Source: Shigella phage vB_SHGBLB0004. Taken from it: a DNA stretch of 11,151 nt. This document shows positions 1 to 11,151 of this stretch, one piece after another (position 1 is the stretch's first letter; every line of letters starts with the position of its first letter). Below the pieces are notes generated by a model. That model saw nothing but the letters and a program-made list of their open reading frames with translations. It made no database searches and was not told where the DNA came from. Made by a program: the position numbers and the translations under genes. Location: the sequence record PV654518. One strand, given 5' to 3'.

Positions 1-60
1 CACACCGGTATCATCACGGTATGTTATGCTTGACACAAATAATTTATTGTGATAGGTGAT
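1..60. repeat. Left inverted terminal repeat (60 bp), probable protein-primed replication origin
   Basis: Bases 1-60 are the exact reverse complement of 11092-11151; identity breaks at position 61 (g versus a). The terminus starts CACACC and contains an imperfect 11-bp tandem (cacaccggtat/catcacggtat), an ACCGGT palindrome and a CACAA/TTGTG inverted repeat at 34-51. Confidence 0.95.
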
Positions 61-72
61 GTATTCACAAAC

Positions 73-88
73 TAGTACACTAGTACAC
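73..88 (+). repeat. Tandem 8-bp direct repeat (tagtacac x2) abutting a TTGACA box
   Basis: tagtacac at 73-80 and 81-88, preceded by ac (71-72), immediately followed by TTGACA at 89-94. Confidence 0.6.
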
Positions 89-119
89 TTGACAAATATA
101 AATAACCATTGACTTATAT
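89..119 (+). promoter_or_regulatory. Candidate left-end promoter for the plus-strand ORFs
   Basis: TTGACA at 89-94 with AT-rich -10 candidates around 112-119 (ACTTAT/TTATAT); a second TTGACT at 109-114 lies 20 bp downstream. The -10 match is weak, so this is tentative. Confidence 0.3.
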
Positions 120-167
120 CTATCTATGTTATACCATCTAATTACACTAACAAATGAGGATAATAAA

Positions 168-458
168 ATGATTCAACTTTTTTCACTGTCTCTTATTAAT
201 TACATTAATTCACGTTTTGAAGTTGGCACAGAAGTTTACTTATCAGATTCTAATGATTCTCAAAATGCTATTGCATTCTCTCATGAATCTGGTAATATAT
301 ATTGGTCAGTTGGGGTTGAGTTAGAATCTAACAAGGTAGTGGTTAACACTGTTTATTTAGATACCGACTACAATAAAGAGTTTGACGAAACCCAAAAATA
401 TGATACACTAAAACAAGTGGTAGAAACAATCATCTACCAGATTAACAAACTTAAATAG
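168..458 (+). CDS. Hypothetical acidic small protein (96 aa from ATG 168; ORF track gives alternative start at 126)
   Basis: GAGGA Shine-Dalgarno at 156-160, 7 nt before ATG 168 and in frame with the longer 126 start. The protein is net acidic (about 14 D/E versus 7 K/R by eye). No recognisable motif. Confidence 0.6.
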   Translation: MIQLFSLSLINYINSRFEVGTEVYLSDSNDSQNAIAFSHESGNIYWSVGVELESNKVVVNTVYLDTDYNKEFDETQKYDTLKQVVETIIYQINKLK

Positions 459-471
459 AGAGAGAAAAATC

Positions 472-624
472 ATGCAAAAGAAAATTACAGTTCACGTAGT
501 TAAATCAGGTGAAAAATCAGTTCCATTCGCAACAGCAACACGCGCAAATGAAGCTCTCGAACTGCTGGCTAAATTCGATATTGAAGCGACAGTTGAAAAA
601 GAAAAGCGCACTGTTCAACTGTAA
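472..624 (+). CDS. Hypothetical small protein (50 aa), not in the supplied ORF track
   Basis: ATG 472 to TAA 622-624, translated by hand: MQKKITVHVVKSGEKSVPFATATRANEALELLAKFDIEATVEKEKRTVQL. Preceded by a purine-rich AGAGAGAGA stretch. Codon choice (CGC for Arg, CTG, TTC, no ATA/AGA) matches the 673-978 gene and the capsid gene. Confidence 0.45.
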   Translation: MQKKITVHVVKSGEKSVPFATATRANEALELLAKFDIEATVEKEKRTVQL

Positions 625-672
625 GCTACCAACCAATAACCAAACTAAATTTTAATAAAAGGAAATAAAACA

Positions 673-978
673 ATGTCTAAAATCACTTTAACAGCAAAAG
701 ACAAATTTAATGCACTTTCAAACGCAAAACATATCTTTGCATTTAAAGAAGAAGAAACCCCGATTAAAGTGCTTGAAGTTATCGAAACTGACGACGGCGC
801 AAAAGCAATTGTAGTAACTGGCGACGGTGTAATTGAGGGTCTTTTCACTAACGCACGTTCAGCGGTGTCTGCTCTTAAAGAACTGCGTAGCGCGTTTGGC
901 GACGAACAACCAGAAGTTATTGTTAAAATTCGCGAAACCGCTAAGAAACAATCAGTTTACTACTTCGAAATTGTGTAG
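673..978 (+). CDS. Hypothetical protein (101 aa), codon-optimised; candidate abundant early protein
   Basis: AGGAAA Shine-Dalgarno 7 nt upstream of ATG 673. Codon usage is biased to CGT/CGC, GGT/GGC, ATC, TTC, TAC, GAC with no AGA or ATA. Followed directly by a rho-independent terminator. No recognisable motif. Confidence 0.7.
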   Translation: MSKITLTAKDKFNALSNAKHIFAFKEEETPIKVLEVIETDDGAKAIVVTGDGVIEGLFTNARSAVSALKELRSAFGDEQPEVIVKIRETAKKQSVYYFEIV

Positions 979-10167: not shown

Positions 10168-10169
10168 TG

Positions 10170-10769
10170 CTAGCCTATTACTATAAATTTAGGGTCTAGG
10201 AAAAAAGGCTCATACATTCTTCCCTTTGATACTTCTAATATAGATTCAACTTCCGCTAGTAGTTCATCTACTGATGTTTTAGCATCCGATAAATCTATTT
10301 CCTGTTCTTTAACGTAGTGATTAATGCTATTCCATATTTGACGATAATCTAACGCCGCTGCTATTTCCCCTTGGCTCTTTAAGTATTGAGTTATTTTACT
10401 TTGCACCTCAAAGAACTTTTTCATTTTCACTTTTAAATCTTTAACTGAATTATATGTGATCCCAGTTATGTTTGCTATTTCCTTTGCGTTATTTGTAGCT
10501 CCTGTTATTGTTGACGTTTCCGCTTTGAGGAATTTTAATAACCTACCAGCCATGTTTTGAACTTCCTGATGCGTCTTACCTTTAACACTGAATTTAGCAA
10601 TACCCTCATTTTTTAATGTCTTTAAAGCGGGGCTGTCTGCCCAGTCTCTATTTTCCAGTCGTTTCATTCTCTTATTTGCGATAGCTGATAATCTACTAAT
10701 CTCTTTTCTGAATGCTTGTGCGTCTAATAACCAAATAGTATCTTCATTAATGCTAGTTCTGCGAGCCAT
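10170..10769 (-). CDS. Putative terminal protein (replication primer), 199 aa
   Basis: It lies immediately upstream of, and is co-transcribed with, the protein-primed polymerase, as phi29 gene 3 does. The N-terminus is basic and starts MARRTS (phi29 TP starts MARSP as I recall). Strong RBS AAGAGGG. It is shorter than known terminal proteins and the priming residue is not identifiable by eye. Confidence 0.55.
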   Translation of the reverse strand: MARRTSINEDTIWLLDAQAFRKEISRLSAIANKRMKRLENRDWADSPALKTLKNEGIAKFSVKGKTHQEVQNMAGRLLKFLKAETSTITGATNNAKEIANITGITYNSVKDLKVKMKKFFEVQSKITQYLKSQGEIAAALDYRQIWNSINHYVKEQEIDLSDAKTSVDELLAEVESILEVSKGRMYEPFFLDPKFIVIG

Positions 10770-10772
10770 ATA

Positions 10773-11015
10773 TTAACCCTCTTTTTTGTTGCGTTTTAAT
10801 TGTAATTCAATTTGATAGTTAACGTAATAATCAAACTCACTTTTTTGATTCATTTCAATTGCTATTTCTAAATAACGTTCAAAATGATTAATATTAGTTG
10901 ACCGTCCGTTTTCAAATGCAGATACTGCTTTGACTTTTTCGCTACCATAAATTTGTGATTGTGTCAAACCTGCTGACACTCTCCACATATAACACGCTCT
11001 ATGAAGTTGTAACAT
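10773..11015 (-). CDS. XRE-family helix-turn-helix transcriptional regulator (80 aa)
   Basis: The segment RVSAGLTQSQIYGSEKVKAVSAFENGRSTNINHFERYLEIA fits the HTH_XRE pattern (GLTQ..., then E-N-G-R, then hydrophobic helix). It is the first gene after the right-end promoter. RBS AAAGGGGA. Confidence 0.8.
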   Translation of the reverse strand: MLQLHRACYMWRVSAGLTQSQIYGSEKVKAVSAFENGRSTNINHFERYLEIAIEMNQKSEFDYYVNYQIELQLKRNKKEG

Positions 11016-11053
11016 TTTATATCCCCTTTTAAGTTGCTCTCTAATATGTGATT

Positions 11054-11083
11054 ATATTACTATATTTTATTATCTATTGTCAA
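11054..11083 (-). promoter_or_regulatory. Candidate right-end promoter driving the HTH/terminal protein/polymerase cluster
   Basis: On the minus strand: TTGACA (plus 11078-11083), an 18-nt spacer, then TAATAT (plus 11054-11059). It lies about 40 nt upstream of the HTH start and just inside the right ITR boundary. Confidence 0.45.
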
Positions 11084-11088
11084 TAGAT
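11072..11088. promoter_or_regulatory. 17-bp perfect palindrome (ATCTATTG-T-CAATAGAT), candidate operator overlapping the -35 box
   Basis: Two 8-bp arms are exact reverse complements around a central base. The minus-strand TTGACA -35 hexamer sits inside the palindrome, directly upstream of the HTH regulator gene. Confidence 0.55.
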
Positions 11089-11091
11089 ATT

Positions 11092-11151
11092 ATCACCTAT
11101 CACAATAAATTATTTGTGTCAAGCATAACATACCGTGATGATACCGGTGTG
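11092..11151. repeat. Right inverted terminal repeat (60 bp)
   Basis: Reverse complement of 11092-11151 equals bases 1-60 exactly. Confidence 0.95.

Follow-up and report, generated by a model that had tools for sequence, protein, structure and literature searches.

The 11,151-nt sequence of Shigella phage vB_SHGBLB0004 (record PV654518), the whole of which is called the window here, represents, with an estimated probability of 0.9, a genome with a complete gene set from a new member, at genus level, of the Astrithrvirus-like group, i.e., phi29-related miniature podophages of Gram-negative hosts with linear double-stranded DNA genomes of 10–12 kb and inverted terminal repeats (ITRs). The window carries exact ITRs of 60 bp at its ends, a gene for a protein-primed family-B DNA polymerase (PolB) preceded by that of a candidate terminal protein, and packaging, virion and lysis genes in the order found in isolates of the group. 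In a first-pass annotation it had been described as a complete linear genome capped by a terminal protein and as a possible undescribed compact lineage. The former description holds in so far as the window is gene-complete, flanked by ITRs and provided with a phi29-type gene set, but its extreme ends may be truncated; the latter fails, as the Astrithrvirus-like phages share the genes, their order, a size of 10.4–11.9 kb and the ITRs. An 11-kb contig that appears exotic in a phi29-centred view finds its place in a group that has been described but little studied. This group, which consists of the smallest tailed phages with Gram-negative hosts, gains a divergent member of genus level, the source of which is defined. 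The lineage is not new; what is new is probably a divergent member with a genus of its own within a known group, and current understanding is not overturned.

Relationship to the Astrithrvirus-like phages

The window is 95.6% coding, has a G+C content of 35.9% and contains 14 open reading frames (ORFs). Three small plus-strand genes run inward from the left end and a long minus-strand operon runs from the right, the two blocks converging at positions 998–1018. The operon encodes, in this order, an 80-aa protein, a 199-aa protein, PolB, the packaging ATPase, a holin, the connector, a 182-aa protein, the major capsid protein (MCP), a 145-aa protein, a 655-aa protein and a CHAP endolysin. The core families PF03175, PF05894, PF05352, PF25622 and PF05257 are all matched above the curated Pfam cut-offs, and the PHROG assignments concur.

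Comparison with 50,697 GenBank phage records places the window among the Astrithrvirus-like phages. Megablast of the whole window gives no match, and tblastn with the MCP and PolB retrieves a coherent set of small genomes, consisting of the Salmonella phages astrithr, Astrid and assan, DU_PP_III, Phanie, Enterobacter phage Entb_47, Salmonella S.Kent 1-2-1 and Vibrio phage K58 g2, several of which bear the NCBI label of the genus Astrithrvirus. These relatives have genomes of 10.4–11.9 kb and show identities to the window of 48–52% for PolB and 63–73% for the MCP, whereas the MCP identity to the next group, the Amedibacillus phages, is 32%. Over all proteins the identities to relatives in this collection range from ~24% to 73%; a near-identical described phage, for which the first-pass annotation had allowed, was not found in it. 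All 14 ORFs have homologues among the group genomes, and the annotation tables show the same gene order. Common to the window and the group are, in addition, a tail knob that is split over two genes, the distal one with Ig-like domains, and exact ITRs, which measure 84 bp in Astrid, 171 bp in Phanie and 219 bp in DU_PP_III.

In a neighbour-joining tree of PolB, with an Amedibacillus phage as root, a separate branch inside the clade of all cultured members is formed by the window together with an uncultured relative (L009, see below). The polymerase phylogeny that had been proposed as a check on the first-pass annotation thus nests the window within the Astrithrvirus-like clade. The nucleotide similarity to the group genomes is approximately 17–28% when taken as blastn coverage times identity. 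This value is far below the intergenomic nucleotide similarity of at least 70% that serves as genus criterion, and the window therefore does not belong to the ICTV genus Astrithrvirus sensu stricto.

The group is known from the literature and from metagenomes. In the review by Evseev et al. (2024) these phages constitute 'cluster 23' of the phi29-like phages, typically with genomes of 11–14 kb and Gram-negative hosts, and are characterized by a terminal protein, PolB, a single-stranded-DNA-binding protein (SSB), a shortened lower collar and a two-gene tail knob. The smallest genomes among isolated tailed phages are, according to a 2025 preprint, the 11.6-kb ones of Astrid and astrithr. A related capsid protein is encoded by 292 contigs of IMG/VR, and most of the 80 contigs that were fetched are 10.4–12 kb long; ITRs are present at both ends in 43 of the 88 related loci examined. 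One of these contigs, L024 (IMGVR_UViG_3300010244_000056), has a length of only 10,020 bp, with a complete ITR of 180 bp that starts with GGGATATCCGC, the terminus of the group. Given the known group and the smaller L024, the window does not represent an undescribed lineage, and it is not the smallest genome of this type either. L024 also lies below the 11.6 kb quoted in the literature for the smallest isolated tailed phage.

The view that the window represents an undescribed compact lineage of terminal-protein-capped phages, distinct from all known phi29-like groups, draws on the lack of a near-identical GenBank phage, on a PolB that is merely 48–52% identical to that of the nearest isolates, and on the N-terminal 401 residues of the 655-aa protein, for which tblastn finds no counterpart among the GenBank phages, the relatives included. 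However, the genes, gene order, genome size and ITR architecture are all common to Astrithrvirus and its relatives, the group has already been reviewed, the window nests within its clade, IMG/VR holds 292 relatives, and smaller complete genomes with ITRs exist, such as L024. The size argument behind this view compared the window with phi29, Cp-1, C1 and P68, a list that omitted the Astrithrvirus-like group. At the level of the lineage the proposal is refuted and, as such, highly improbable; it survives only in the form of a new genus or species within the group. It is extremely improbable that the window is a linear plasmid or phage-plasmid instead of a virulent phage. Protein-primed PolB genes and ITRs do occur on linear plasmids, and phi29-like modules are found on plasmids of Firmicutes (Evseev et al., 2024), but virion and lysis genes, in a complete module, take up the genome of the window, Pfam and PHROG scans of its proteins detect neither a partition nor an integrase or repressor family, and the cultured relatives are lytic phages.

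Among the isolates, the Salmonella phages of Astrithrvirus astrithr (astrithr, Astrid and assan, 11.57–11.71 kb) have AT-rich genomes with the same gene order as the window. This order runs from a small gene through the terminal protein candidate, PolB, ATPase, holin, connector, a ~180-aa protein, MCP, a ~145-aa knob protein and a large knob protein to the CHAP endolysin, followed by converging small genes. The identities to the window are 52% for PolB, 66% for the MCP, 69% for the ATPase and 35% for the terminal protein candidate. In contrast, the nucleotide similarity of astrithr and Astrid to the window is only ~19–22% (coverage times identity), the ITR sequence is unrelated, Astrid has four left-arm genes where the window has three, and the large knob proteins are unrelated over their N-terminal two-thirds. 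Pectobacterium phage DU_PP_III (11,504 bp) shows the highest MCP identity among the isolates (73%) and the highest nucleotide similarity (~28%), and shares with the window a 96/110-aa left-end gene and a sub-terminal ACTAGTAC motif. It differs in its PolB, which is only 48% identical, and in its ITR, which starts with GGGATATCCGCCCC, a sequence missing in the window. A 2026 paper describes the metagenome-assembled genome (MAG) MT83_9 as an Astrithrvirus of 11,145 bp with a G+C content of 34.65% and 87% nucleotide identity to DU_PP_III. Identity of the window with MT83_9 was considered and rejected, given these values and the absence of a megablast match between the window and DU_PP_III.

Acinetobacter phage Aci01-2-Phanie (11,885 bp) shares with the window its synteny, the split knob with Ig-like domains and the absence of fibre and spike genes, and its terminal protein candidate is 49% identical. 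Its knob protein is longer (854 aa versus 655 aa), with similarity over about a third of the window protein, and its endolysin has an extra domain. The closest sequence found is that of L009 (IMG/VR UViG_3300006879_000306), an uncultured fragment of 8,541 bp that is the sister of the window in the PolB tree and shows identities of 81% for the MCP, 62% for the terminal protein candidate and ~67% at the nucleotide level over the aligned parts. More distantly, phi29 (Salasmaviridae) has in common with the window a protein-primed PolB, the gp16 ATPase, the connector, the MCP and tail-knob folds, as well as ITRs and a gene ahead of that for the polymerase, at the place of the terminal protein gene. 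Unlike the window, phi29 has an ITR of only 6 bp (AAAGTA), a genome of 19.3 kb as compared to ~11.15 kb, a single-gene tail knob and Gram-positive hosts. Its pRNA, appendages, head fibres and scaffold have no detected counterpart in the window, and no similarity is detectable between the terminal proteins.

Terminal repeats, genome ends and proposed protein-primed replication

The first 60 bases of the window, CACACCGGTATCATCACGGTATGTTATGCTTGACACAAATAATTTATTGTGATAGGTGAT, are identical at 60 of 60 positions to the reverse complement of bases 11092–11151, and the identity between the two arms ends at base 61. The left ITR (1–60, plus strand), a presumed replication origin with an assembly-defined outer boundary, and the right ITR (11092–11151, minus strand) thereby lie exactly at the two ends of the window. 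As the second-best inverted pair that a repeat finder returns within the window is only 29 nt long with 72% identity, a chance origin of the 60-nt repeat is excluded.

The exact ITRs reported in the first-pass annotation are reproduced in independent assemblies from two sequencing projects. Look-ups with exact protein sequences led to contigs of run ERR2184199 in the Logan assemblies (de Bruijn graph, k=31), which together cover positions 31–11121 of the window at ~100%. The sole difference between these contigs and the window is the length of a T5/T6 run in the T-run of the bidirectional terminator (window 1015–1022). Both arms end exactly 30 nt (k-1) inside the ITR, as is expected of a de Bruijn graph at a true inverted repeat, and the inner 30–34 nt of the ITR are seen in independent Logan contigs. 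Two later runs, SRR24079957/8, contain a variant of the window phage that is 98.8–98.9% identical. In the SRR24079957 variant, ITR position 57 is a G in the left arm (L111) and a T in the right arm (L091); the perfectly shared repeat is 56 nt in the variant, and both arm contigs end at position 27, again 30 nt inside. A breakpoint that shifts with a single-nucleotide polymorphism (SNP) points to a genuine ITR and would otherwise be hard to explain, while the G/T mismatch implies that the two ITR copies are not always kept identical.

The extreme termini may nevertheless be incomplete, as base 1 and base 11151 cannot be confirmed as physical DNA ends from the assembly. An ITR collapses to one node of the assembly graph, and both contig ends are then cut alike where coverage stops, which gives symmetric ends regardless of the true ones; symmetric truncation by 1–25 nt is common among related contigs. 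Several observations weigh against the interpretation of the window as a complete genome of this group. Its non-coding termini measure 125–167 nt on the left and 136 nt on the right, as compared to ~200–310 nt in Astrid and Phanie, its 60-bp ITR is shorter than those of the relatives (mostly 75–350 bp), and its terminus CACACC matches neither of the clade termini, GGGWTATCCGC(C)n and AAAGGTACGC. Furthermore, neither a scaffold protein nor a receptor-binding protein is identified among the window genes, and a GTDB scan for the host yields no more than 17 distant relatives, most of them in bins of MAGs from unrelated taxa. With an ITR and non-coding termini that are short relative to complete relatives, the chances that some tens of bases are lost at each end are rated about even. 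Exact ITR patterns were sought in IMG/VR and JGI metagenomes for an assembly with longer ends, without a match by which the termini could be extended.

An origin of the ITR and the contig ends as artefacts of assembly is very unlikely, and so is a larger genome of which the contig would be only a part. The collapse of the repeat node, the adapter sequence or truncated ITRs in which some related IMG/VR contigs end, and the short termini of the window all fit such an explanation. On the other hand, two independent arms run into the same inverted sequence in three runs from two projects, the single-copy SNP at position 57 moves the contig breakpoints as a real repeat predicts, and the gene content equals that of complete isolates from end to end. 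It follows from this end-to-end match that only terminal non-coding DNA can be missing. The alternative, also named in the first-pass annotation, thereby shrinks to the loss of tens of bases at the ends and leaves the identification of the window as a gene-complete Astrithrvirus-like genome unaffected.

The termini of related contigs vary in how far they extend. In the sub-clade that contains the isolates, most termini read GGGWTATCCGC followed by a C-run; that of Astrid is ATTTTTATG, from which the CACACC of the window differs. In a large IMG/VR sub-clade a single terminus is seen at various lengths, among them AAAAAGGTACGC, AAAGGTACGC, GGTACGC, TACGC and still shorter ones. Sequencing-adapter sequence is found at some contig ends (TruSeq in L030, Nextera in L037 and L065), and the direct junction of the TruSeq adapter to AAAGGTACGC in L030 marks a physical DNA end there. 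A very abundant sub-clade (L026–L088, from IMG/VR sample 3300045988 and others), with genomes of ~11.2–11.7 kb and ITRs of 120–350 bp, has ITRs that begin with AAAGGTACGCTACTGACCC, a phi29-like AAAG start.

Within the left ITR a TTGACA sequence at positions 30–35 points inward. It belongs to the stretch TTGACA...TTTAT(T)GTGAT (window 30–58; L009 ~70–100), the only part of the terminal region that is conserved with L009. As this stretch faces inward at both ends, it could be a symmetric early promoter or operator. Directly inside the left ITR only, at positions 71–88 (plus strand), lies the tandem motif ACTAGTAC ACTAGTAC. The pair is also sub-terminal in L009 (positions 7 and 15), and the motif occurs once per ITR copy in DU_PP_III (position 38). 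The motif is a possible, conserved site of protein binding close to the origin.

The PolB gene (8038–10167, minus strand; 709 aa) matches PF03175 (E=4.7e-19, with a score of 69 bits against a cut-off of 25.8) and phrog_1907 (E=5.8e-76). The only PDB match of the protein is the phi29 DNA polymerase, with an alignment that covers phi29 residues 137–464 and spans the TPR1/TPR2 region. In this alignment the motifs YxxxD (Exo III), DxxSxYP, KxxxNSxYG and YxDTDS (A, B and C) and KxY are found, in agreement with the earlier assignment as a protein-primed family-B polymerase. The presumed terminal protein (10170–10769, minus strand; 199 aa, all-alpha) is encoded directly upstream of PolB, as in all relatives, and 62 homologues of 197–228 aa were recovered. 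Residues T85, S86, T87, G90, Y129 and L130 are invariant among 26 aligned homologues. In an AF2 model with a pLDDT of 72 (>85 over residues 21–100) the invariant T85-S86-T87-x-x-G90 segment sits in a short loop between helices. The terminal protein proposed earlier has the conserved position, the size and the invariant Ser, Thr and Tyr residues, but no similarity to phi29 gp3 is detected in sequence or fold and the protein stays a candidate. In the terminal protein of phi29 the priming serine occupies a loop position, of which the Thr-Ser-Thr loop of the 199-aa protein is reminiscent. The modelled T85-S86-T87 loop is the best candidate for the priming site, and the alignment of 26 sequences yields a concrete priming-site prediction for the group, comprising the TSTxxG loop and Y129.

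By homology to phi29, the 199-aa protein would act as the terminal protein, pair with PolB and recognise the ITR origins at both ends. PolB would covalently attach the initial nucleotide to the terminal protein at a side chain with a hydroxyl group, the T85-S86-T87 loop being the best candidate site, and strand displacement would then copy both strands. The resulting unit-length DNA with its terminal proteins would be packaged through the connector by the gp16-type ATPase, no pRNA being detected, and the cell would be lysed by the holin and the CHAP endolysin.

Source, host and lifestyle

Run ERR2184199 represents the Eliava PYO97 pyophage cocktail, a therapeutic preparation that contains the phage; the window derives from, or is identical to, a phage therein. 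In Table 8 of Villarroel et al. (2017; PMC5707535), four single-contig bins of PYO97 have similar sizes: PYO97_2 (11,313 bp) and PYO97_18 (11,354 bp) are listed as 'unknown' among the non-phage bins, and PYO97_1 (11,445 bp) and PYO97_9 (10,727 bp) are given as partial phage drafts with little resemblance to references. These four bins probably include the window phage and its kin, and several Astrithrvirus-like mini-phages plausibly co-exist in one therapeutic cocktail. A marketed cocktail hence holds the window phage or an identical one, with ~11-kb bins that were once filed as 'non-phage' or 'unknown'.

The 17 relatives in GTDB, detected by their capsid genes (L093–L109), lie in bins labelled as Bifidobacteriaceae, Phocaeicola, Omnitrophota, Clostridia and others, with one Herbiconiux isolate assembly. 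Most of them are probably mis-binned phage contigs, the taxonomic labels of which do not denote hosts. The G+C content is uninformative about the host, because all members of the group are AT-rich (32–40%) irrespective of their hosts. Proteus, a target of Pyophage, is only a guess.

A lifestyle as helper-dependent satellite podophage of the Phanie type is compatible with the placement of the window in the Astrithrvirus-like group and is a tentative possibility, though an unlikely one. The tail knob would in this case dock on the contractile tail of a helper myophage by means of the Ig-like domains in the unique N-terminal part of the 655-aa knob protein, and the virions would be non-infectious until docking. 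According to the review by Evseev et al. (2024), which summarizes Pourcel et al. (2024), Phanie depends on the myophage Aci01-1, with virions that are chimeric and become infectious only after tail binding; other members of the group share the split knob, lack fibre and spike genes and may act alike. The window has the same split knob and a lineage-specific knob N-terminus, none of its proteins matches a fibre or spike family in Pfam or PHROG, and its source is a multi-phage cocktail rich in myophages. Relatives likewise come from mixed lysates or cocktails, e.g., MAG MT83_9, and the 'K58 g2' and multi-contig S.Ent 1-35-3 records may, judged by their names only, be further mixed cases. However, no helper is identified for the window phage, the Salmonella phage Astrid is called 'non-satellite' in the 2025 preprint, co-occurrence in a cocktail is expected of any component phage, and the N-terminal domains of the knob protein could bind a bacterial receptor directly. 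Helper dependence is demonstrated for Phanie, as related in the review. It is rather doubtful that all elements apply together, i.e., a satellite of the Phanie type that the Eliava Pyophage has harboured unnoticed since at least 1997, Ig-like docking on a helper, and Thr-Ser-Thr priming from a terminal protein that is not gp3-like. Should such phages depend on a helper, as Phanie does, they would be hitch-hikers of relevance to the characterization of cocktails.

Virion genes, transcription signals and small genes

The gp16-type DNA-packaging ATPase (6956–8041, minus strand; 361 aa) matches PF05894 (E=5.2e-21) and phrog_2150. It is followed on the same strand by the holin (6760–6954; 64 aa), which has one hydrophobic segment and matches phrog_4898 (E=5.8e-10), and by the connector or upper collar protein (5657–6763; 368 aa; PF05352, E=3.9e-17; phrog_2038). 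Residues ~280–368 of the connector form a long, highly acidic, low-complexity C-terminal tail outside the matched Pfam connector domain; since no separate scaffold gene is recognisable, a scaffold-like role of this tail is conceivable. The 182-aa protein of the structural module (5106–5654, minus strand) has a conserved position and shows 24–32% identity to counterparts in six of seven group genomes, with no match in Phanie. No Pfam, PHROG or PDB match was obtained for it, even with a profile of 16 sequences, and it is either a shortened lower collar, such as is listed for cluster 23 (Evseev et al., 2024), or a scaffold. The phi29-type MCP (3941–5092, minus strand; 383 aa) matches PF25622 with E=6.5e-65.

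The tail knob is encoded by two minus-strand genes. The proximal protein (3444–3881; 145 aa) matches the tail protein profile phrog_2248 at positions 66–123 of 590, in its N-terminal part. Its mechanical ORF starts at GTG 3944 (166 aa); a hairpin in the 5' extension and the lengths of the homologues, mostly 140–155 aa, place the start at ATG 3881 instead. The distal protein (1475–3442; 655 aa) has a conserved, knob-domain-like C-terminal part of ~250 aa and ~400 N-terminal residues that form unique beta-sandwich (Ig-like) domains, which are likely to be the specificity determinant. In the AF2 model residues ~120–200 and ~297–390 repeat a pattern of a helix followed by about five strands. Short echoes, 'GTELTSG' and 'GTEIKAG', suggest duplicated beta-sandwich modules, and a BLASTP comparison of the protein with itself detects no internal repeats. 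The CHAP-domain endolysin gene (1023–1478, minus strand; 151 aa) ends the operon, with matches to PF05257 (E=6.8e-8) and endolysin PHROGs and 44–48% identity to the endolysins of the group.

Transcription would proceed inward from both ends, with the three small early genes read from the left and one long operon from the right, the latter starting with a regulator-like 80-aa gene and continuing with the terminal protein candidate and PolB through to the endolysin. The two blocks would meet at a predicted bidirectional intrinsic terminator (998–1018, either strand), which has a 9-bp stem and a T-run (fold z = -3.1) and lies between the convergent genes. A second, terminator-like hairpin (AAAACCGCCGACAAUGGCGGUUUUUU, approximately 3891–3920, minus strand; fold z = -2.55) lies within the 59-nt gap after the capsid gene and may attenuate expression of the tail genes. 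Just inside the right ITR, the promoter-like site TTGACA-18-TAATAT (11054–11083, minus strand) is the best in the scan with 10 of 12 consensus positions, and by this consensus match it could drive the minus-strand operon. An Rfam scan of the window at E <= 1 shows no pRNA, which according to Evseev et al. (2024) has been found in no phages other than phi29 and its relatives from Bacillus, and returns two sub-threshold chance matches (rimP leader and STnc150). No tRNAs were found in the window, and its terminal non-coding regions fold no better than shuffled sequences.

The 80-aa first gene of the operon (10773–11015, minus strand) has no family match in Pfam or PHROG and is 28–59% identical to its counterparts in 11 related genomes. 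At the left end, the outermost gene (168–458, plus strand; 96 aa) starts at ATG 168 with a GAGGA ribosome-binding site, the mechanical ORF starting at 126 (110 aa). It matches no Pfam or PHROG family and has homologues only in DU_PP_III and S.Kent 1-2-1 (45–48% identity). The following 50-aa gene (472–624, plus strand) is kept in six of eight comparison genomes (36–54% identity). The third, a 101-aa gene (673–978, plus strand), is the best conserved of the early genes, with 48–63% identity to all Astrithrvirus-like isolates and no Pfam or PHROG family match. It is possibly the counterpart of the SSB of the group, a phi29 p5-like SSB being listed for cluster 23 by Evseev et al. (2024). An identical 101-aa protein is encoded on a sewage metagenome scaffold.

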